Positions 3,001 through 64,000 are shown, numbered from the stretch's first letter. The stretch: 64,000 nt of DNA from Planctomycetota bacterium (GCA_965223505.1 CBDCWP010000042.1:32001-96000); one strand, 5' to 3'. Program-made: numbers and translations. The notes: generated by a model from the sequence alone, not told the origin.

Positions 3001-6000
3001 GCGAGCGCGCGGCGGCCGTCCTCGCGTACGGCTGCACGCGGCGCAACGCGCCGGAGACGCTGCCGCAGGAGGTGCTCGGCGACTTCAGCCTCGCCTTGAC
3101 CGCGCAAGCGGAGGTTCTCGTGAACGACGAGAAAGCCGTGGAGCTGATGGACTGGCACTACCAGATCTACCGGCTGCTGATCGCGCTCGACCGCCCGGAC
3201 GATCTCGAGAAGCGGCTGACGAGCTGGATCATCCCCGCCAAGGTCGAGAGCCGCTGGCGCATCGCGCTCGGCTACCTCTACGCCGAGACGAGCCGTCTCG
3301 CGCCCGCCGCCGAGCAGTTCGAGACCGTGCGGGCGCAGGACGAGCTCGGCGCCGCCCAGTACGAAGCGCTTGCGACCTGGTATCTCGTGCTCGACGACGA
3401 TGCGCGCCGCAACGCCGCGCTGCTCGGGCGCTATCAGTCGATGGGCGAATGGCAGCTCGGCAACCTGCTGTACGAGCACCAGCGCAAGGTCGCGCCGCGC
3501 CGCCGCGGCGGCATGCCGGAAGACCTCGACCCCGAGGCGCTGCTCGTCATGCAGGCGCTCATGCGCAAGTCGTCGTACCCGGGCAATCAGCTGTACCGCG
3601 TGCGCAACATCTACCGCGCCGTCAAGGACCACCGCCTGTTGGAGAGCATGGTCGACGGTCTGCCGGGCCACACGAAGGAAGGCATCTACAGCTTCTTGCG
3701 TTCGGCGCAGACCATCACGAACGAAATTCACGAAGAAGCGACGTGCGATGCGCTGGTCGCGCGGATCGAGGCGGTCGCCGCCGAGTCCGACAGCCCGCTG
3801 GACCGCCGTGCCCTCATGTTGTTCCGGGCGGCCGTCGAGCACCGCGCCGCACAGGTGCAGGACGCGGACCCGGTCCACGCCGATCGCGCGTACGAGGCGC
3901 TACGCGGCGCGCTCGACAACGAGTGGCAGCCGGGCGAAAAGCGCTTGCTGGCCCAATACCTGAGCGGCTTGCGCTTCCCCCAGGCGGGACGTCTGGAGAC
4001 CGTGCAGATGTCGCACTTCCAGGCGATGTACCGCGGTGAGCCGGCCGACTCGAAGCAGCGCTTCTGGATCGCCTTCTACCACGCGCAGGCGGAGTGGGGC
4101 TACGGACGCGGTGATCGCGCCATCGACCGGCTCACGACGGCGCTGGACGACGAACGCGAGCGTGCCGGTCTCGGGTGGCTTCCCCACGAGGCCAACCACG
4201 GCTTCCAGACGTTGGTCAGCTGGCACACGCAGCGCTCGCAGTTCCTCCGCGCGGAGCGGTTGATCCTCGAAGAGCGCGCGCGCCGCAAGCTGCCGATCCA
4301 CGTCGAGCAGCTCGACGGCCAGCTCTACAACGTCTACATCCAGGCGCTTCGCAAGGGCGGCAGCGTGTCCCTCGGGCGCGGGAATGCGCTGTTCGACGCC
4401 GCGACGAGTCAGCTCGCGGCCGTGCTGCAGCGCGCCCCGTTCCGCATGAACCAGCTCTTCTCGACGTACTGCCAGCTGCACCAGACCGACCGCGGTCGTC
4501 CGATCGTGAACGGCGCCGACGACCGGCTGCACGCCTACGGCAAGCAGACGCTCCCGGGCCTTCTCGAGCGGCTTCCGCTGCAGGCGACGAACCTCGCGGG
4601 CACGATGGCGGGCGCGCTCAGGCGTCTGACCGGCCCGCGCTCGGGAATCCGGTATCTGCTGGACCGCCGCGACATCGAGCCGACGTGGCTCCGGCGCATC
4701 AGCTACGACGTCTGGTATCGCCACAACCGCTCGCTCGCGCAGTGGCGCTACGACGCGGGCAATCTCGGTGACCTCGAGCCGCGCCTGTTGAAGGTCGTGA
4801 TCGCGGCGCTGGAGCGGCGTCTGGAGACCGGGTCGAGCCGCGGCGGCTACTTCTGGAACCGGAACAACAAGTGGTACTGGGGCGCACAGGCGACCGAGTT
4901 CGCCGCGACCGCCACACGCATTCTGGAGCGGCACGAATCGTCGCCGGCGATCATCTGGCGCGTCGCCCACTTCCAGCGCAACGATCTGGGGCTGCGGCGT
5001 GAAGCCGTCGCCACACTCATGGCCGCACACAAGCGGGAGCTCCTCGACATCAATCGGCGCTGGACGCTCGGCAGCTGGCTGCGCGACGACAAGCGCTTCG
5101 AAGAGGCGCTTCCGATCGCGTTGGCCTTGCGCGAGGAGAAGCCGCGGTCCCTGCCGTACCGGCAGCTCGTGATCGACGCGTACGGCGGGCTGGACCTGAA
5201 GAAGGAGGCGCTCGCCGCGCTGCTCGACACCGAGACCACCTTCCGCGAGCTGAAGATCTGGACCGAATCGGCCGCTGCCGGTCTGGCCCAGCAGGCCGTC
5301 ACGTACCGCTTCGCCGAGCACGGCGTGCGGCTGTACGAAGAGGCGATTCGCCTGCGCACGGACACCCGTGGTTATCGAGGCGGCCGCGACAACACGATCG
5401 CGAACTACAACTTGCACCTCGCCAAGGGTCGCGCGCAGCTCGGACGCATCGAAGAGGCGGTGCAGGCCGCATCGGCCGCGCTGGTCGCCATCGACCGTTC
5501 GCAGCGAAGCCAGGACCGCGCCCTCGGGGCGCTGCGAGAGGTGCTGCGCGAAGCCGAGGACCTGAGCGCCTACGTCGCGACGTACGACGCGGAGGTCGCG
5601 AAGACGGGGCTCGATGCACCGCTCCTGCGCCGTGAGCTGGGCGCCATCTTCCTGGACAAGGAGGAATACGACGCAGCGGTCACGCAGCTGCGCGCCGCCC
5701 GAGAGCTCGACGGCACGGACGCGAGGGTTCACCAGCTGCTGGTGAAGGCCTACGACGGCAAGAACGACGCCGAGGGCGCCATCGACGCGCTGTTCGGATC
5801 GATCCGCATGTCGCCGCACAACCTGGACGCGTACGAATCGCTGGCGGGGCGATACGAGCGCACCAACCCGGGTGCGAGCGACGTCGAGCGCGCGCTCACG
5901 ACCATGGTCGAGAACACGCCGCACGACGCGGACGGGCACCGCAAGCTCGCGCAGATTCGCGAGACGCAGGGACGTCTGGAGGACGCGGTCGTTCAGTGGG

Positions 6001-21709: not shown

Positions 21710-24700
21710 TCAGCGCGGCCGCGGACGCAGTGCGACGTCTGCCTCGGTGGTCGCGCCCGCGTCGATCGAGATCAGTACGCGCTCGACGTTGTAGGTGTCG
21801 CCGGCGTCGATGACGACCTCGTAGGTGTCGGGCTCGAGCTCCCCCACATCCAACACGCCCGTCTTCGGAAGGAAGCCCCACCGAGGATTCAACGTCAAGC
21901 GCGCGAGCGGCCGGCGGCGCGCGACGACCTCTTCCGTCCCGGCACGCAGGATGTCGATGCGTGCGCGCGTGACCGGGTCGCGGCCCGCGCCCGTCACGTA
22001 CAGCCGCAACGCCCCGGCGCGGCCCAGCGCGATCTCGAGCGGAAACGTCCCTCCCTCCGAGACGCGCACGCGTCGAAGCGTCGGACGGCCGTACCCGCGC
22101 GCCTCGACGCGGACGAAGACGTCCTGCGACGGTACGCCGGGAATCAGCAGCTTGCCGCGCGGTCCGGTCGAATAGGCATTGACGTGCAGCGGGACGCCGT
22201 AGTCGTCTTCGATCCAAACGCGCGCGCCGCTGACGCCGCGGCCCACCTCGTCGATCACTGCCAGGTCGATCTCGCCGCCGCGCCCGAGGACCACGGTGAC
22301 CTCTTGCGCCGCCGCGCCGACCTCGGCCTGGACGGACTCGAGCACGCCCGGCGGAAGTCCCGGCGCGGACACGTCGAGGGCGTACCACCCCGCCGGGAGG
22401 CCGGTCAGCCGGAAGCGGCCGCCGGGGTCGCTGCGCCCGCGCGCCACGACGGCGTCGTCGGACGGCAGCCCCTCCTCGTCGAGTGACCGCGCGAGCACCT
22501 CGGCGCCGGCGACCGCGTCGCCGAACGAGGTTTCGACGCGCCCCACGATCTGCGCCTCCCACGCCTCGAGATCCAGCACGACCCGATCGCCGTCGCCGAC
22601 GTAGACGTCGTGGTGAATGCGCGTCGAGCCGTCGCCGAGATACACGTGATACGAGCCCGGCAGGAGGTCGTCCCAACGGAAGGCGCCGCTCGCATCGCTG
22701 CGCGTCTGCATCCGTCGCATCGGTCCGTCGACCTCGACGCCGTCGGAGATCAGCTCGAGCAATGCGTCGGCCACGCGCTTGCCGCGCCGCTGCACGGTGC
22801 CTTCGACGGTCCCGCGCCCCTTGACCGCGAAGTCGACGGTGGCCGTCTCGTCTTCGATGACCTCGATCAGCGCCTCCGGCCGGTTGCCCATGCTGCGCCA
22901 GGTCTCGAGCGCCACGACGCACGCGCCCGGACGCACGTGCAGCAGCTCGAACGTCCCGTCGGCGCGCGTTCGCGTCTCGCGCGCCACCGCGGATTCCTCC
23001 AACCGGCGCAACGTGACGCGCGCACCGTCCATCGGACGACCGTCGGGCAGTACGGCCTTGCCGTTCACCGTTCCGCCGCGGCCGAGCACGAGCTCCGGCG
23101 TGACGAGGAACTCGTTCTCGACGACACGCACCTCCTGCATGTCCTCCGCGAACCCGTCGTCCGTCGCGTACACGCGCCACACGCCCGGCGCGACGTCTTC
23201 GAAGATGAACCCGCCGTCGGCGTCGGTGCTACGCACGTGCCGGTTGGTCGACGCCCCCGCCGGCATGTCTCCGGCGCCGTTGACGCGAACCAGCCGCACC
23301 TTCGCACCCAACACGGGAAGGTCGGCGGCATCCAGAACGGTCCCGGCGATGCGCGCGCCGACCGGAATCGGAAGCTCGATCTCGCGGACGTCCTCGTCGT
23401 GAATCAGCAACGAGAGCGCGCTGGAGTCGCGCAACCCTTGCACGGCGCGCAACCCGTACGGGCCCGGCGGCAACCCTTCGATGACGAACGCGGCGTCGGT
23501 GCTGCCGCCGGGCTTCGTATCGACCGCCAGCACCGACACCCAGCGATGGCGCTCGAGCCGCGGGTCGTAGCGGGGCGTCTCGACCTCGACGCGAACGGCG
23601 CCGCCGTCCGGGTCGATGCCCGTGACCGTCCCCTCGACCGCCAGCAAGGTGGGCAGCACGATCTCGACGTGCGTCTCGTCGCCCGGCATGACGCTGTCTC
23701 GGCGAGCGACGACGACGTCCGGACGCGAGGTCGGCGCCACCTCGATGTCGATGGCCACGGAACGCAGTGACGTCAGCTCGAACCGCCCGTCTTCATCGGT
23801 CTGCGCGCGCACGACGCCGCGGCCGTCGCGCGGCCGCGCCGCGACGTCGAACGTCGTCCCGCGCTTGCCGTCCGCCGTGAGCACCTGGCCGGTCACGGTG
23901 AGCGCCGGCGTGAGCGTGACGTCCCAGCGTTTGTGGGTCGCGGCGGCGGGCGCACTGAACGTGCGGGTCAACTCGATCCAGCCGTCGCCCCGAACGATGC
24001 AGGTCACGTCTTCCTCGGGCAGGTCGCGCATGGACGCCACGCCGTTCGTGTCCGTGAGCTCGGTGCGCCGGAGCGTCGCCCAGCCCTTGTGACCGCTCGA
24101 CGCCGCGTAGCGCGTCGGCAGTGCGTGCACGTGAACCCCCGACACGGGGCGGCCGCCGGAGTCCCGCGCGCGCACGACCAGCTCCCAGCCGGGGTTCATG
24201 CGAATCGGCGCCACGACGGTATCGCGCCGGCGCACGGCTTCGAACGGCTCCGAGGACGCCGGCGCGTACCCGCCGGCGGACGCGAGCACGCGGTACCCTT
24301 CGCCGGGTGAGACGCCGCGCAGGCGATACCGCCCGGACGCATCCGTCTTCACGGCGCGCACGACGGCGGCCTGCTCACCGTCGGGATCGTCGCTCGTCGC
24401 GTCGCGCACAAGTCGGACGTCGACACCGGCGAGCGGCTTCTTGTCCGCGTTCTCGACGACGCCGCGCACGTCGTAGCGGCGATACGCGAACCAAGGAGGA
24501 ATGCGAATCGGCTTGCGCAAGTTCAGCTCGATGCGCGGAGGCGCGGGATCGAACTCCCACTCCGCGCTCAGCAGCGCGATCTGGTAGATGCCCAGCGGGA
24601 GGTCCGAAGCGACGAACCGCCCCGTCTCGTCGCACGCGACCTCGCGCATCACGTCGGGCGCGCCCGGCAACGACTGAAAGCGGAGCGCGAGCCGCGACAC

Positions 24701-54092: not shown

Positions 54093-54259
54093 GGGCGACC
54101 CTCGTGGTCGCCCAACCGTTCGTCGATCAGGTCCCGACACATCAACGGTCCGGGAGCGGGAGCGGGATGGATGTAGGGGCGACCCTCGTGGTCGCCCAAT
54201 CATTCGTCGATCAGGTCCCGACACACGCACGGTTGGGCAGCCACAAGGGCTGCCCCTAC
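54089..54259. repeat. GTAG-family REP cluster (two direct copies plus one inverted; REPIN/BIME-like)
   Basis: GTAGGGGCGACCCTCGTGGTCGCCC at 54089-54113 and 54173-54197, each followed by the shared linker TTCGTCGATCAGGTCCCGACACA; inverted unit at 54235-54259. Confidence 0.88.
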
Positions 54260-57168: not shown

Positions 57169-58866
57169 GTGCTCGCAACGCTGCTCTTTGAACCCGAGCC
57201 TCTCCTGGTCCTGGCGTTGGTCCTCGTCGTCGGCGTCGCCTCGGGCGCGATCGCGCGGCGTCTGGGCCTGCCCTCCGTCACGGGACAGATCCTCGCCGGC
57301 ATCTGCCTCGGCCCGATCTTCCACGTGTTCGAGCACGCGACGATCACGGGCTTCGCCCCCGTCATCGACTTCGCCCTGGGCCTCATGGCGGTCGCGGTCG
57401 GCAGCCACCTCCAGATCGCCCGGCTCAAGTCGGCGGCGCGCCGGCTCTCGCTGCTCATCCTGGCGGAGGCCCTTCTGACGCCGGCATTGGTGTTCGGGGG
57501 CGTCATGATCGTCGGCGGTGTGGAGTGGGATGCCGGATTGATCCTGGCGACGATCGCCGTCTCGACGGCGCCGGCCACGATCCTGGCGATCGTGAAAGAG
57601 ACGCGCTCGAAGGGGGTCTTCGTCAAGACGCTCGTCGCGGCGGTCGCGCTGAACAACATCGTGTGCATCGCGCTTTTCGAGTTTGCGCACACCGCGGCGC
57701 TGCAAGCCGTCGGCGGAACGAACGGCGTCTCGACCTGGGCGCTCTTGCTGGCGCCGCTCGAACAGCTTCTCTTCGCGGTCGTCCTGGGCAGCGGCGTCGC
57801 GATCCTGCTCGTCGTCGCGACGCGCCACGTGGTGCGCACCGATCAGATGACGACGCTCTCGTTCATCACCATCCTGCTGACGGCGGGACTCGCCGCGCAG
57901 CTGGGCGTCTCGTCGCTCTTGGCCTGTCTCGTCTTGGGCGTCGTCCTCGCCAACCTCACGCCGGACAAGGAAGAGATCGGTCACAGCGTCTTCGAGAGCT
58001 TCGAGACGGCGATCTTCGCGATCTTCTTCACGTTGGCCGGCATGGAGCTGAACTTCGACTACGCGCTGGAGGCCGGCGTGCTGGCGCTGGTCGTCGTCAG
58101 CATGCGCGGCGCCGGCAAGCTGCTGGCCGGACGATTCGCCATGGGCTTGGCCGACACGACCGACCGGGTGCGCAAGAACCTCGGGCTTGCGCTCCTTCCG
58201 CAGGCGGGCCTGGCGGTGGGCCTGATGCTGCTCGTCACGGAAGACACGCGCTTCCCGGAGGAGATGCGCGCGGTCATCCTCGCGACGGTGCTCACGGTCG
58301 TGACGATCAACGAGATCATCGGACCGGTCTGCACGCGCATCGCGCTCGCGCGCTCGGGCGACATCGGCCGCGACCGATCGCGCCTCATCGACTTCATCCA
58401 CGAAGAGCACATCGTGACGGACCTGGAGGCCGAAAGCGTCGAGGAGGCGCTCGAGAAGCTCACGGATGTGCTCGTGCGGACGAACGATCTGCAGGCGAAC
58501 CGCGACGCCATTCTCGCCTCGGCGCTCGAGCGGGAGTCACGCGGCTCGACGTGCCTCGGCGACGGCCTTGCGGTTCCGCATGCCGATCTCGAGGAAGGCG
58601 ACGAGATCGTGGGCGCGGTCGGCATCAGCAGCGAAGGACTTCACTTCGAAACGCCCGACGGCGCGCCTGTGCACTGCATGGTGCTGATCGCGACGCCGCC
58701 GTCCCAGCGCGACCACCGGCTGGAGGTCATCACGGCGTTTTCGCGCGCGATCTTCAGCGACCGCGGCATCGAGCAACAGCTCTACCACGCCCGGACGCCG
58801 GCGCACGCGTACGAGCTCCTTCATCACGAGGAGTCGGAGGACTTCAACCACTTCCTCGAAGACTGA
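57169..58866 (+). CDS. Cation:proton antiporter (CPA2-like) fused to a PTS EIIA type-2 domain
   Basis: LPSVTGQILAG, STAPAT, FFTLAG, LLPQAG; C-terminal RE..GST.LG.G.AVPHA EIIA motif. Confidence 0.88.
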   Translation: MLATLLFEPEPLLVLALVLVVGVASGAIARRLGLPSVTGQILAGICLGPIFHVFEHATITGFAPVIDFALGLMAVAVGSHLQIARLKSAARRLSLLILAEALLTPALVFGGVMIVGGVEWDAGLILATIAVSTAPATILAIVKETRSKGVFVKTLVAAVALNNIVCIALFEFAHTAALQAVGGTNGVSTWALLLAPLEQLLFAVVLGSGVAILLVVATRHVVRTDQMTTLSFITILLTAGLAAQLGVSSLLACLVLGVVLANLTPDKEEIGHSVFESFETAIFAIFFTLAGMELNFDYALEAGVLALVVVSMRGAGKLLAGRFAMGLADTTDRVRKNLGLALLPQAGLAVGLMLLVTEDTRFPEEMRAVILATVLTVVTINEIIGPVCTRIALARSGDIGRDRSRLIDFIHEEHIVTDLEAESVEEALEKLTDVLVRTNDLQANRDAILASALERESRGSTCLGDGLAVPHADLEEGDEIVGAVGISSEGLHFETPDGAPVHCMVLIATPPSQRDHRLEVITAFSRAIFSDRGIEQQLYHARTPAHAYELLHHEESEDFNHFLED

Positions 58867-58875
58867 TCTCGCGCG

Positions 58876-61800
58876 CTAGCGGAAGTACCAGGGCTGACAG
58901 AGGCCGGTTTGCTCACATGCGTAGCCGAGGCGCTGGATCAACGTCAGGGCCTTGTCGCGGATCGGATGCGAGACGATGCCGCTTTCGCACGTGCCGTAGG
59001 TCGACCAGGGACCACCGCAATCGGTACCTGTCAGGTTGGGATACGGCATCGGAACCGGCGACGGCGCCGCCGGGGTCACGCACGCACCGAGGCTCGTCGT
59101 CAGTCCCTGACCGATCGCCTGGTTGAGCAACGACTGTGACAACGCGTTGTCGTGCATCACATATGCGTCGATCGGCGTGGATGCGCCGGCGTACGGGCTG
59201 TCGTAGGCGTGGGTGGCGTACGAAGGGGTACTCCCTGGGCGGTGCGTCGGATCCACCACCAACGGTGCCATCTCGAACGGACTCATGTGTGCGTTCGTCA
59301 CGAACGCGTCGGACGACGTCGACGTGCCGCGCGTGGCGTTCATCAGGTTGCTGCCCGCGTCGTGCCGGGTCCCGCGGCCGACGTACAGGGCGGCCCCGAC
59401 ACTGCCTCCGATCTTGAGCTTGCCGTCCTCGTACCCGATGACCGAGTGGTTCAAAGGCCTTTCGCCCGCGAATGACTCGACCGTCGTCGACGCTTCGTCG
59501 CGGAGCTGGAGCTCGAATTCGAGGCGATTGTCGTGGCACGCGTAGAAGATGCCTTCCTCTTCCATGAGCCGGTTCACGAAGTTCAGGTCGCTCTCGTTGT
59601 ACCGCGCGTTGTAGACCCGGCCCGTGATCACCGGCCGATCGGGATCGCCTTCCACGAACATCGTCGCCAGCACCTCGCTCTCGCGCAGGATCAACCCCAG
59701 CCCCGCGCCCTGCGCGCCGTTCCCGGAGCCGGAGACGGCGTACGAGCTGACGCGCGCCTTCTCGAGCTTGATGGTGTAGCGCCCCATCGGATCGGCGGCG
59801 TTGATGGGGTCGTTGCCCGCGAAGGCGAGCGGGTTGCCGTCGGATGCGGCGTCGCCGTACTTCCCCAGGGGATCGCGACAGGCGAACTCCGCGTCTCGGG
59901 GGTCGCGGTACCGGGCGCGGTGGTGGTAGAGCGCGGTGAACGTGTCCCAGCGCCGGCCGTGCTGCAGGAACGGGTTTTCCAGCGGGCTGCCGGCGGTTGC
60001 GGCGAGCGTCGTCGCGTCGTGCACGGAGGGGAAGTCGAGCACGCCGTAGGCGTTGAACTCCACCGGCGCGCCTTGCTCGTTCACGAGGTGCGTGACGTTG
60101 CCCGACGGTCCGCGCAGATGGAAGAAGTAGGCGTCCGGCGTGATGTCCCTGCCGGAGTCGGCGAACATCGCGTGGATCGAGTCGGTGCCCTCGCCGTAGA
60201 CGAATTCCCGCGTCAAGGTCTCCGGCAACGCGGCGGTCGAGACGCGCTCCTCGACGACGTGTTCGCCGTCGTACACGTAGTGCTCCGTGCGCAGGCCCTT
60301 GCCGCCGCCGCTGAACTCCTTGGACACGCGCCGTCCGAGCGCGTCGTAGGTGTTGACGCCGACAACCGCGTTGGGGTTGACCGCGAGCCGAACGGCGCGT
60401 AGACGGCCGAACCCGTCCCACTGCAGCAAACGCACGGGGTCCTCCGAGCGCATGCCGCAGCCCGTGCCGCCGCCGTCAGCCTGATACGGCGCATCGGCGA
60501 TCGCGTGCAGCGGCGTGCGATTGATCGCCCGGTTGGTGGTCCCGCCCGCGCCCAAGTCCTCGAAGACATTCTTGATCGCCTGCGCGCCGTCATACGTGAC
60601 GTCGACGTTTCGTTGCGCGGCGCCGCCGAGGCTCGTGGTCTCCATCGCGTCTTCGGTCGTGAGCCGGCCACGCGAGTCGTAGCTCCAGGCGAACGCCCGC
60701 GACATCTGCGGACCTCCGGGTGTGACATAGGCGTACGCCGCCGTGGTCATCTGGTCCGTGCGATTGCGCGCCGAGATCTGTACGCCGCCGACGCCGGCGC
60801 CCGGCTGATCGATGTGCGCCACGCTCGCGATCAACAGCTTGCCGTCGAACGTCGCGGTCGTTCGGCTGCGTTGCGTCCCGCCGATGAGCCTCTCGACGCG
60901 CAGCACCTGCGCCGTCCCCAGTCGTCGCAGCAGGATCTCGAGACGGTTCGGGGTCGCGGCGGGTTCGACGATGCCGGTCAGCTGATTGTGATCGTCGTAC
61001 TCGTACCGCAGCACGCGTCCCTCGGGGAAGTGCAGCGTGCTGCGCCGATCCGCGTCGTAGCTCGTTCCGGTCGCGACGCCGTTTTGCACCTCCTCGACGC
61101 GGCGGGAGAGCGAGTCGTACAGGAAGCGCACCGTCGCGTCGTCGCCCGCGTCGCCGGGCTCGTTGTTGTCCGTGCAGACGATCTTGCGGGAGAGCCCGTC
61201 GTAGTCGTAGGTGAGCTCCGTCGAGCCGACGTAGAGCGGCAGCGTCCCGCCGGCGATGGTCCGCGTCGGGTCGGGCGCGACGGTGTGACTGCGCAGCCGG
61301 TCGAGAGCGTCGTACGTGAACGTGTGGACGGTGCCGTTTTCGTCCGTCGACGACGTGACGCGGTGGTCGCGGTCGAACGTCCAGGTGCACACGCCGCCGT
61401 CGGGGTTCGTGCGCGAAACGCGCCGGTCGATCGCGTCGTAGGCGTACTGCGTCGTGTTGCCGGCGTCGTCTGTGCGCTCGGCGACGCGCCCGTTGGGATC
61501 CCACTCGCTCAGGAGCCGAATCAGACCGTCGTTGTTGTGGCTGTTCGTAGTGTCGAGCGCGTTGGCGCCCTCGCCGCCGACGCGTAGCTCGCGCGTGACG
61601 AGCCACGGGCGATCCACCCCGTCGTAGTCCACGAACAGACCGTTGCCGTGGCCGTTGATCGGTCCCGGAAACAGCGCGAGCGGGTCGCTGATCAGCACCC
61701 CGCGCGCGTCGTACTGCGCGGTCAGGTTCCCGCGGCTGTCGTACTCGAAGCGCGTGGTCTGTCCCTTCGGATCCGTGACGCGGGTGACGCGGTTCAGGAC

Positions 61801-63999
61801 GTCGTAGACGTAGTGCGTCGTGAGCGTCACCGGCGCGACGATCGACATCTCGCTCACGTGCACGGCTTCGGTGCGAACGACGTTGTCGTTCGGATCGTAG
61901 AGAAACCGTGTCTCGGTCGGCGTGGGCCCGGCGGGATCCACGATCGGCAAGCGCCGTGTGATCAGTCGGTCGGCGCCGTCGTAGACCTGCGCGTAGGTCG
62001 CGTCCCGGTCCTCGTGACGAAACGTCATGCGCCCGTTCGCGTCGTACTCCAGGATCGTGTTGATCTTGCCGTCGCCGGGGACCAGCGGCCCTTCCGTGAC
62101 CGTTGCACCGCTCGAGGGCGTCACGCCGGTCGCCAGGAACAGATCGCGATCGATGCGGAAGAGTCGGCTGTGCTCGTCGTACAGGAAGTCGCTCCCCGCA
62201 AGCAGAGTGTGGGCGCCGCCGCCCACGGCCGGACCGCGCGCCTCGTAGCGCACGCGGTTCCCCACCGGGTCGTACGCGCAAGTCTCGACGTTGCCTTCGC
62301 GGTCGGTGACGGCGATGCGCCGGTCGAAGCCGTCGTAGTCGTAGCGCGTGACGTCGCCGCCCTCCGCGTCGATGACCTGGACCCGGTTGCGGTTGTCGTC
62401 GTACAGGAAGGTTGCCGTCGAAGCATCGTTGCCTTGCCCGCCGAGCGTTCGGGCGTCGCACAGGTCGCGCGCGTCGTAGCGGAACAGACGGCGGTTCTCG
62501 CTCTGTTGGCCGGAGGTGGACGCGGGGGTGGCCACCTCGACGACGTTCTGGCTCGCGTCGTAGACGTACCGCGTCTCGAGTGCGGTCGGCTGCGCCGACG
62601 CGGGCACGGCCGGATCGCGCCGCGCATCGTGGGTCGCGGCGATGCGATCGTCGAGGATGTCGTACGCAAAGACGTGCGTGAAGACCGCGAGCCCGGGCAC
62701 GACCCCACTCTGGTGCGTGGTTCGGTCGGTCTTCTGATTCTCGACCTCGACACGGACCACGTTGTCGTTGGCGTCGTAGATGACGTCGCGCCGGTAGCCG
62801 TGCGACTGACCTGCGTCCACGACCGGCGCCTCGACGCGCACGATCTGATCGAGGGCGTTGTAGATCGTGATGAACTCGCTGCCGCGAGCGTCGTCGAATC
62901 GAATCTCGTTCCCTCGGCGGTCGCGCGTGAACGTGTGCGTTAGCGCCAGCGCCGGGCCCGGGTCCTGTCGGCGCGGTCCGATCGACGCGTCTTCGACGAC
63001 CTGCCGCAGGTATCCGCCGGTCGTGCCGTTGCGGCCCGGCGTGACGTCCTGGCCGTCGCCGTCGGGGTCGTTCTCGGGGAAGTAGGCAAACGTGTCCTGG
63101 TTGCCGCGCGGGTCCTCGAGCAACGTCAGCTGACCCAGGTCGTTCCAGACACAAAGCACCACGATGCCCTGCAGGTTGTCACCCTCGGTCGCCGCCTGCT
63201 CGGACGTGATGTCCAGGTGCACCGTCGGCGTGTCGACGCGTACGGGATTGCCCATCGACTGGTCGATACGACCGTCGAAGTTCAGGTCGCCCTGGTTGAG
63301 CAGGCCGGGCGGGATCGTGATGCCGAACTGGGCGGCCTGCGGCGGCGCGACCGTGTTCTCCATCCAGTCGTAGTGGTAGGTCGTGGTGTACCGCGCGGCC
63401 GACTGCGGTCCCCCGTTCTGGGGTAGATACGTGGCGTCGTTACCGCGCGGGTCCGTGACGGTGCGCACGAGGTTGTAGAGCGGCTCGTACGTGTAGGTCG
63501 TTCGCAGCTGCAGCTGATCGCCGCCGCGCCCGTCCGGGACGCAGGTGCGCGAGAGGAGGTTGCCGTGCCGGCAGCGGTCGGGGCTCGTGCTGTCGTACAC
63601 GAAGTCGACGCGGTTCCCGAGGGGCGTGGTGATGCGCGTCGGCAACCCGTCGCCGTTGTAGGTCACGTCGGTCGTGAAGCCGCCGCCGGACGGGGACTCG
63701 ACGGCGCGCAGACAGTGGCCGTCGCCGTCGTGGAAGTACTGGGTGGTGTTGCCGTTGCGGTCCACGACGGTCGTCATGGACGTCGATCCGGGCGGGCCGG
63801 CGACGGCGCCGAAGTCGTAGGTGTACGACAACGCGCCGCCCGCGGGCTGACCGGACGCGTTCGTCCCGCCGATCGTCTGCGAGACGACGCGGTCGAACCC
63901 GAACCCCGCGGCGCCGTACGTCACCTGGCGCGCCGGCGTGAGACTGGCATTCGCGACCTCGTTGGGTCGGATGACGCGCAGGAGGTTGCCGTTGAGACG
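58876..63999 (-). CDS. RHS/YD-repeat protein (5' part outside the window) with RHS core and unusual mosaic C-terminal tip
   Basis: Many YD repeats; RHS core NPFLQHGRRWD...LYHHRARYRDP...RDPLG...NDPINAADPMG; frame stays open to the window end. Confidence 0.93.
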   Translation of the reverse strand, partial: RLNGNLLRVIRPNEVANASLTPARQVTYGAAGFGFDRVVSQTIGGTNASGQPAGGALSYTYDFGAVAGPPGSTSMTTVVDRNGNTTQYFHDGDGHCLRAVESPSGGGFTTDVTYNGDGLPTRITTPLGNRVDFVYDSTSPDRCRHGNLLSRTCVPDGRGGDQLQLRTTYTYEPLYNLVRTVTDPRGNDATYLPQNGGPQSAARYTTTYHYDWMENTVAPPQAAQFGITIPPGLLNQGDLNFDGRIDQSMGNPVRVDTPTVHLDITSEQAATEGDNLQGIVVLCVWNDLGQLTLLEDPRGNQDTFAYFPENDPDGDGQDVTPGRNGTTGGYLRQVVEDASIGPRRQDPGPALALTHTFTRDRRGNEIRFDDARGSEFITIYNALDQIVRVEAPVVDAGQSHGYRRDVIYDANDNVVRVEVENQKTDRTTHQSGVVPGLAVFTHVFAYDILDDRIAATHDARRDPAVPASAQPTALETRYVYDASQNVVEVATPASTSGQQSENRRLFRYDARDLCDARTLGGQGNDASTATFLYDDNRNRVQVIDAEGGDVTRYDYDGFDRRIAVTDREGNVETCAYDPVGNRVRYEARGPAVGGGAHTLLAGSDFLYDEHSRLFRIDRDLFLATGVTPSSGATVTEGPLVPGDGKINTILEYDANGRMTFRHEDRDATYAQVYDGADRLITRRLPIVDPAGPTPTETRFLYDPNDNVVRTEAVHVSEMSIVAPVTLTTHYVYDVLNRVTRVTDPKGQTTRFEYDSRGNLTAQYDARGVLISDPLALFPGPINGHGNGLFVDYDGVDRPWLVTRELRVGGEGANALDTTNSHNNDGLIRLLSEWDPNGRVAERTDDAGNTTQYAYDAIDRRVSRTNPDGGVCTWTFDRDHRVTSSTDENGTVHTFTYDALDRLRSHTVAPDPTRTIAGGTLPLYVGSTELTYDYDGLSRKIVCTDNNEPGDAGDDATVRFLYDSLSRRVEEVQNGVATGTSYDADRRSTLHFPEGRVLRYEYDDHNQLTGIVEPAATPNRLEILLRRLGTAQVLRVERLIGGTQRSRTTATFDGKLLIASVAHIDQPGAGVGGVQISARNRTDQMTTAAYAYVTPGGPQMSRAFAWSYDSRGRLTTEDAMETTSLGGAAQRNVDVTYDGAQAIKNVFEDLGAGGTTNRAINRTPLHAIADAPYQADGGGTGCGMRSEDPVRLLQWDGFGRLRAVRLAVNPNAVVGVNTYDALGRRVSKEFSGGGKGLRTEHYVYDGEHVVEERVSTAALPETLTREFVYGEGTDSIHAMFADSGRDITPDAYFFHLRGPSGNVTHLVNEQGAPVEFNAYGVLDFPSVHDATTLAATAGSPLENPFLQHGRRWDTFTALYHHRARYRDPRDAEFACRDPLGKYGDAASDGNPLAFAGNDPINAADPMGRYTIKLEKARVSSYAVSGSGNGAQGAGLGLILRESEVLATMFVEGDPDRPVITGRVYNARYNESDLNFVNRLMEEEGIFYACHDNRLEFELQLRDEASTTVESFAGERPLNHSVIGYEDGKLKIGGSVGAALYVGRGTRHDAGSNLMNATRGTSTSSDAFVTNAHMSPFEMAPLVVDPTHRPGSTPSYATHAYDSPYAGASTPIDAYVMHDNALSQSLLNQAIGQGLTTSLGACVTPAAPSPVPMPYPNLTGTDCGGPWSTYGTCESGIVSHPIRDKALTLIQRLGYACEQTGLCQPWYFR

Positions 64000-64000
64000 G

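Follow-up and report, generated by a model that had tools for sequence, protein, structure and literature searches.

An RHS protein of a Planctomycetota bacterium ends in an in-frame mosaic of short type VI secretion protein pieces

The closest described systems to the locus reported here are the Rhs/YD polymorphic toxins with replaceable tips (C-terminal displacement, orphan tips). Jackson in 2009 and Koskiniemi in 2014 reportedly found that recombination at the core end changes Rhs tips. The passages of Kirchberger et al. 2017 (PMC5361080) on which we draw treat such recombination as the accepted route of tip change, and propose homology-facilitated illegitimate recombination for effector modules of type VI secretion systems (T6SS) and for Rhs loci: the exchange is anchored in a conserved stretch, and its opposite end is joined illegitimately. 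We analyzed a 64,000-nucleotide (nt) stretch of DNA from a Planctomycetota bacterium (GCA_965223505.1, CBDCWP010000042.1:32001-96000; hereafter the window), in which the minus strand carries a gene for an RHS/YD-repeat protein. The protein shares with the Rhs/YD toxins a YD shell, a DPxG-type motif, and unrelated tips on related cores, but its tip, the 301 amino acids (aa) that follow the sequence DPMG, is a patchwork of T6SS structural proteins, with no toxin domain and no immunity gene. We recognized four short pieces in it: Hcp-like (22 aa), VgrG OB-fold (26-36 aa), VgrG gp27 (43-50 aa), and DUF4150/PAAR-like (~22 aa). These pieces are not colinear and make the tip a genuine in-frame mosaic; their coordinates are listed in Table 1.

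Table 1. Features of the RHS gene, its tip, and the adjoining gene, in window positions.
Feature	Position	Strand	Remarks
RHS/YD-repeat protein gene	58876..64000	-	cut by the window edge; stop codon 58876-58878
DPMG, C-terminal autoproteolysis-type motif P-x4-D-P-x-G	59782..59793	-	read in the sequence; D at 59791-59793; putative cleavage site
Hcp-like piece, tip aa 2-23	59713..59778	-	candidate; Hcp profile positions 100-121
VgrG gp5-OB-fold end piece, tip aa 24-59	59605..59712	-	VgrG ~415-450/456; holds the GDPDRP...YN motif
VgrG gp27/Phage_GPD piece, tip aa 60-102	59476..59604	-	VgrG ~146/150-192; directly joined to the OB piece
Stretch without any match, 127-131 aa, from tip aa 103	59095..59475	-	coding-like third-position GC in frame
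DUF4150 (Tox-PAAR-like) N-terminal piece, tip aa 230-251	59029..59094	-	Pfam positions 10-27; own profile 12-33
C-terminal tail without match, 50 aa, 4 Cys	58879..59028	-	helix predicted with low confidence
Convergent neighbor: Na+/H+ exchanger fused to PTS EIIA-2	57169..58866	+	E 1.6e-25 and 1.3e-22

Two further groups of described proteins come near this arrangement. Specialized ('evolved') Hcp, VgrG, and PAAR effectors and VgrG-Rhs fusions (e.g. PDB 8qja) likewise combine T6SS structural domains with Rhs or toxin modules in one polypeptide; there an intact structural domain sits at the N-terminus and works in a T6SS, whereas here pieces of 22-50 aa follow the RHS core, with the VgrG order reversed. 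T6SS-delivered Rhs toxins differ at the other end of the protein: the N-terminus here is a Sec/lipoprotein-type signal followed by DUF6531, without PAAR/DUF4150 or VgrG. In the system that the cited passages of Kirchberger et al. 2017 (PMC5361080) describe, whole genes or 3' ends are displaced into arrays, not several 20-50-aa pieces into a tip in one frame. Its conserved anchor, illegitimate other end, and remnants of displaced genes would nevertheless explain how motif-coding stretches survive.

The entire RHS open reading frame (ORF) codes for 1990 aa (L002:4877-10849, own genome), laid out from N- to C-terminus as leader, DUF6531, RHS repeats, and tip. A lipobox-like LSLGC, judged by eye, ends the leader, and Pfam places RHS_repeat in seven stretches (E 2.8e-62) and DUF6531 at E 5e-9. 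The cleavage-type motif and the peptides of the tip lie where the first-pass annotation of the window had read them. A motif of DPxG type precedes the variable tails in 49/49 RHS ends from related genomes. With YD/RHS shell repeats and a P-x4-DPxG motif read at the border of core and tip, the protein would belong to the Rhs/YD-repeat polymorphic toxins, and the RHS shell may encapsulate the tip and cleave it off. No folded toxin domain was found in the tip: Pfam and NCBIfam toxin families gave no match, and PDB relatives were reached only via the VgrG pieces. There is likewise no cognate immunity gene directly downstream, because the convergent transporter gene stops 10 bp from the RHS stop.

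Several methods identified the two VgrG pieces. Pfam Phage_GPD matched tip aa 55-82 at profile positions 117-144 of 305 (E 1.4e-8; 34.8 bits against a curated cut-off of 30.1), Pfam DUF6484, which represents the end of the OB fold, matched the tip at E 0.0087, and the NCBIfam VgrG model matched in two stretches (E 8.4e-15). A profile of 70 VgrGs found the gp27 piece at an independent E-value of 1.2e-15 and the OB piece at 9.7e-13, and hhalign gave the gp27 piece a probability of 97.9. BLASTP paired tip aa 24-59 with VgrG 415-450, and VgrG1 chains in the PDB matched the tip at 426-454 and 143-173. A second profile, of 10 VgrGs from the phylum picked by Pfam score irrespective of likeness to the tip, found both pieces in the same reversed order (OB piece E 1.6e-9). 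We searched 1,835,955,588 protein representatives with phmmer and obtained 1461 matches at E <= 0.001, the best at 1.4e-9 and none at E <= 1e-10. The 150 matches listed have VgrG-like lengths and cover only tip aa ~20-60 (VgrG ~415-470) and ~55-105 (VgrG ~145-195). The tip is not a complete VgrG (TssI): its NCBIfam VI_Rhs_Vgr score of 54 bits lies below the cut-off of 186, and the order of hub, OB fold, and beta-helix is missing.

The PAAR-like piece is below threshold in Pfam (E 0.026, 15 bits against a cut-off of 31, profile positions 10-27 of 108). A profile of 24 DUF4150 regions from the phylum scored 19.7 bits on the whole tip (E 3.5e-8) and 23.6 bits on a 50-aa segment with the piece, a score that 0/2000 shuffles reached (maximum 9.7). 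The full Tox-PAAR-like domain of ~108 positions is not present, and the tail shows no DUF4150 signal. For the Hcp piece, no Pfam or NCBIfam family matched at E <= 10. Our profile built from 30 Hcp sequences of phylum members gave 9.6 bits on a 38-aa segment (E 4e-5; reached by 0/2000 shuffles, maximum 2.2), and semi-global alignment gave a z of 2.9 (3/300); only profile positions 100-121 match, so that the full Hcp (TssD) fold of ~160 aa is absent. All four likenesses had been proposed in the first-pass annotation, and the profile scores for each exceed those of shuffles. The Hcp assignment is the weakest of the four, and we keep it tentatively as the better reading of this segment.

We also considered whether the Hcp piece is instead the upstream half of a VgrG OB fold in diverged form, and rejected this: it scored 0.1 bits, which 72/2000 shuffles reached, and semi-global alignment gave a z of 1.3, or -1.2 without DPMGR. 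That reading originates in 52/299 BLAST high-scoring segment pairs that run from DPMG through the OB motif, treating the first 60 aa of the tip as one colinear VgrG segment; hhalign posteriors there were 0.4-0.6.

The pieces do not follow the order of any one protein. In both VgrG profiles, VgrG ~432-456 comes first and is followed directly by ~150-192. The piece edges are abrupt, as VgrG residues W392, D393, R394, S403, C404, R407, and V408, near-invariant and upstream of the OB piece, are missing from the tip, and VgrG signal ends with the gp27 piece. Against the profiles of VgrG, Hcp, and DUF4150, tip aa 103-233 and the 50-aa tail do not outscore shuffles; a colinear extension of the gp27 or PAAR-like piece into these parts was tried and rejected for lack of signal. 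A single protein family colinear with the whole tip would have explained the mosaic away, and we found no such family. AlphaFold2 without an alignment predicted the tip as unstructured except for low-confidence helices (mean predicted local distance difference test score 31). A fifth Cys of the C-terminus, beyond the four of the tail, sits inside the PAAR-like piece. Low-complexity linkers had been described between the pieces; instead, the first three adjoin without a linker, and the ~131 aa that precede the PAAR-like piece are a stretch without assignment rather than demonstrated low-complexity filler. Piece lengths run from 54 to 150 nt, in place of the ~50-70 bp first given.

In-frame GC content at third codon positions (GC3) is 0.73-1.00 per 30-codon window across the tip, with a mean of 0.867 vs 0.905 in the core. 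By this measure the whole tip, down to its matchless parts, resembles native coding DNA in this frame.

We next compared the tip with RHS relatives and possible donors. A search of proteins 1094-3483 aa long gave no homologue of the tip region at E <= 0.001. The best 80 metagenome-contig loci and best 80 genome-contig loci held no relative of the tip, only ordinary VgrGs in which the two VgrG pieces lie ~900 nt apart in normal order. Among the 49 related RHS tips, none has a Pfam match to Hcp, VgrG, or PAAR-like families; 39/49 have no Pfam family at E <= 0.01, and some carry toxin-type families (M35 peptidase, Tle1-like phospholipase, and a weak ribonuclease match). Of the Phage_GPD matches listed for 401 phylum genomes, only that of this genome is confined to profile positions 117-144. 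A further 43 Phage_GPD rows of that scan lie outside the matches listed, and we re-examined 10 weak-match genomes: none of their 15 rows is confined to the motif, seven span most of the profile (18-38 to ~300), and eight cover 59-149 profile positions in frames of ordinary size. The closest RHS ortholog (ORF ending at 3801 of G026:C62, locus L010) is 40% identical at the core end, and its Arg-rich tail is unrelated. The mosaic tip is thus a one-off, a singleton in the libraries searched.

Nucleotide searches in the own genome and in 256 fetched loci did not turn up the donors that the first-pass annotation expected; the best matches in these loci were 80-89% identical over 54-73 nt of motif-coding DNA. 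That annotation had proposed repeated in-frame capture of fragments, for which different assortments in other RHS homologues would speak. The in-frame mosaic is real, so the proposal is partly supported. A capture system is not, given that none of the 49 tips holds such a piece and that neither homologue nor donor was found. The roles that the annotation suggested for the tip, a decoy, a docking array, or a coding record of captured DNA, are speculative.

We also surveyed the genome for T6SS genes. In the own genome, which is 92.5% complete, there are no matches to VipB/TssC, Hcp, or Tox-PAAR-like, only sub-threshold matches to Phage_base_V, and the sole Phage_GPD match is the RHS tip itself. 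A weak Phage_base_V match at window positions 23522-23635 (minus strand; C42:55522-55635; E 0.32, 13.9 bits), within a 1276-aa frame, is probably due to chance. In samples of the phylum, Hcp occurs in 43/201 genomes and Phage_GPD in 123/401, and Phage_GPD is found in 0/16 genomes of the window's family. The missing T6SS and immunity genes are compatible equally with a decoy and with an inert relic.

We lean towards a single chimeric RHS tip that arose by illegitimate recombination from an hcp-vgrG-PAAR-like module, is real DNA, and probably has no activity. An exported RHS shell, with a signal/lipoprotein leader and without a toxin domain, would have received its tail from an hcp-vgrG(-vgrG)-PAAR-like module by illegitimate or homology-facilitated recombination and deletion. 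Serial events anchored on motif-coding stretches would have left motif-centered remnants. The most conserved stretches may survive because interspecies nucleotide identity suffices there to anchor recombination; since, in addition, only conserved pieces can be recognized, this would explain without any function why the tip holds the most conserved stretch of each family. The tail is probably non-enzymatic, largely inert cargo. The order Hcp, VgrG, PAAR-like is the usual operon order, and the three genes lie co-directionally on one contig in 11/17 phylum genomes with a PAAR-like match, 7/11 of these genomes coming from one family. One genome has a tandem vgrG, vgrG, then PAAR-like gene on one strand (G209:C955:167-12573); relative to such an arrangement, the reversed VgrG pieces would be colinear. 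If this origin is correct, the tip is an unusually legible scar, an hcp-vgrG-PAAR-like module collapsed in frame into an RHS tip of a T6SS-poor lineage; it would document how non-toxin DNA can give rise to an RHS tip, and would hint at a lost or foreign T6SS.

Four points weigh against this origin. All four pieces share one frame, for which chance gives at most ~4% with at least three random joints; this hints at selection for translation, a hint weakened by the look-elsewhere effect of a scan of many windows. Motif residues are near the family consensus, so either the event was recent or the pieces are constrained. An unbinned T6SS cluster could lie in the part of the genome that is not covered. 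Finally, no donor or intermediate was found in the searches above, and the history is one that we infer.

We then asked which other accounts could explain the tip. The payload could be a small unrecognized module in the ~131-aa stretch or the Cys-bearing tail, with the T6SS pieces as an inert N-terminal spacer left by recombination. Some 180 aa out of 301 are without any match but retain coding-like GC3, and the share of related tips without a Pfam family shows that such a lack of matches is normal for functional tips in this clade. Against a hidden payload stand the lack of a downstream immunity gene, the lack of any homologue of the matchless part in our searches, and the AlphaFold2 prediction of little structure. 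We consider it unlikely on balance.

Another account is that the tip is a selected array of T6SS-assembly mimics, freed from the RHS shell to act as poison or decoy against the T6SS of competitors. Its elements would be an Hcp strand, the junction of the VgrG OB fold and beta-helix, a gp27 helix, and a strand from the N-terminus of a PAAR-like cap. The pieces do come from the most conserved stretch of each family, near consensus and all in frame, and T6SS-bearing high-GC organisms occur in the same samples. The genome has no detected Hcp, VgrG, TssC, or PAAR-like genes and no immunity gene at this locus, and a producer without a T6SS would not need one. Such a tip would be the first secreted anti-T6SS mimic, broad-spectrum against the T6SS of neighbors; full-text searches, judged from listings and abstracts, returned no description of a tip of this kind or of secreted T6SS mimics. 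However, the tip is a singleton without conservation and has no counterpart among the 49 related tips, and cuts of 22-45 aa from beta-rich folds would probably neither fold nor compete with native subunits. We also know of no route by which a Sec-type RHS protein of this kind would enter the cytoplasm of a competitor. The mimic account therefore seems improbable to us, and the present evidence favors a recombinational scar over a selected mimic.

A chimera of the metagenome assembly, in which conserved motif-coding k-mers joined unrelated reads, would remove the mosaic altogether. Depth is ~5x, and our check compared assembled contigs of several runs and so stands at contig level. The contigs of one run (X2) break at 59632-59646, within the GDPDRP codons. 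In contigs of other organisms from the same runs, 41-43 nt of the GDPDRP...YN coding sequence (59606-59649) recur with 3-4 mismatches; motif-coding DNA is close to identical among co-resident high-GC species. On the other side, a 10,850-nt contig from a second assembler (X1) covers 58600-60200 with 0 differences, although X1, from the same sample as X2, is possibly the source sample itself, so that the independence of its support is incomplete. The X2 contigs on either side of the break each keep odd joints: RHS core with Hcp-like piece and OB piece on one, and OB end with gp27 piece through to the neighbor gene on the other. A second sample (X3) contains parts of the tip unchanged and leaves others uncovered, and a further run (X5) yielded no more than 224 nt of the RHS core. 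The joints fall at unconserved piece edges and not within the shared motifs, where a k-mer chimera would place them, and frame and GC3 continue across them. We therefore give an assembly artifact little credence. Chance resemblance of short peptides, suggested by the brevity of the pieces and the lack of a Pfam or NCBIfam family for the Hcp piece, is very improbable, and it is effectively refuted for three pieces, given the E-values of the VgrG pieces (down to 1.4e-9 among 1.84 billion proteins), a Phage_GPD score over the curated cut-off, and Hcp and PAAR-like scores that no shuffle reached; the Hcp piece alone could be chance.

Several RHS genes encountered in the comparison deserve mention in their own right. 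In the closest ortholog, SPAG replaces DPxG at the core end and is preceded by an inserted stretch; a convergent gene with a PEP-CTERM-like end follows, and no immunity gene lies downstream there either. The tip of another RHS protein (L303, G019:C117) has, at aa 131-151, a 21-aa match to VWA7_N (E 1.7e-6, profile positions 81-101 of 230), which may be either a catalytic motif in common or one more snippet. Relatives of the same family carry dense series of matches to RHS core ends in short open frames, of 420-1300 aa (G009:C1:2017-64041; G020:C5:151332-185597; G020:C8:688832-702211), and these look like classic orphan-tip arrays. The bacterium also has a paralogous RHS gene of 1981 aa on its contig C5 (L221:74-6019, minus strand), with DUF6531 and RHS repeats and a core end that is 36% identical. 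Its C-terminus is a complete Secretin (PF00263, E 1.3e-22, profile positions 1-168 of 169), and by eye it has no clear DPxG; this RHS-secretin fusion is unusual in itself.

Around the neighboring transporter gene, synteny is not conserved in three relatives. Beyond it, at window positions 54259 to ~57015 (minus strand), lies the gene for a large exported protein that combines HEAT repeats with a vWA domain at the C-terminus; the 5' end of its listed ORF reaches too far, across the convergent transporter gene.

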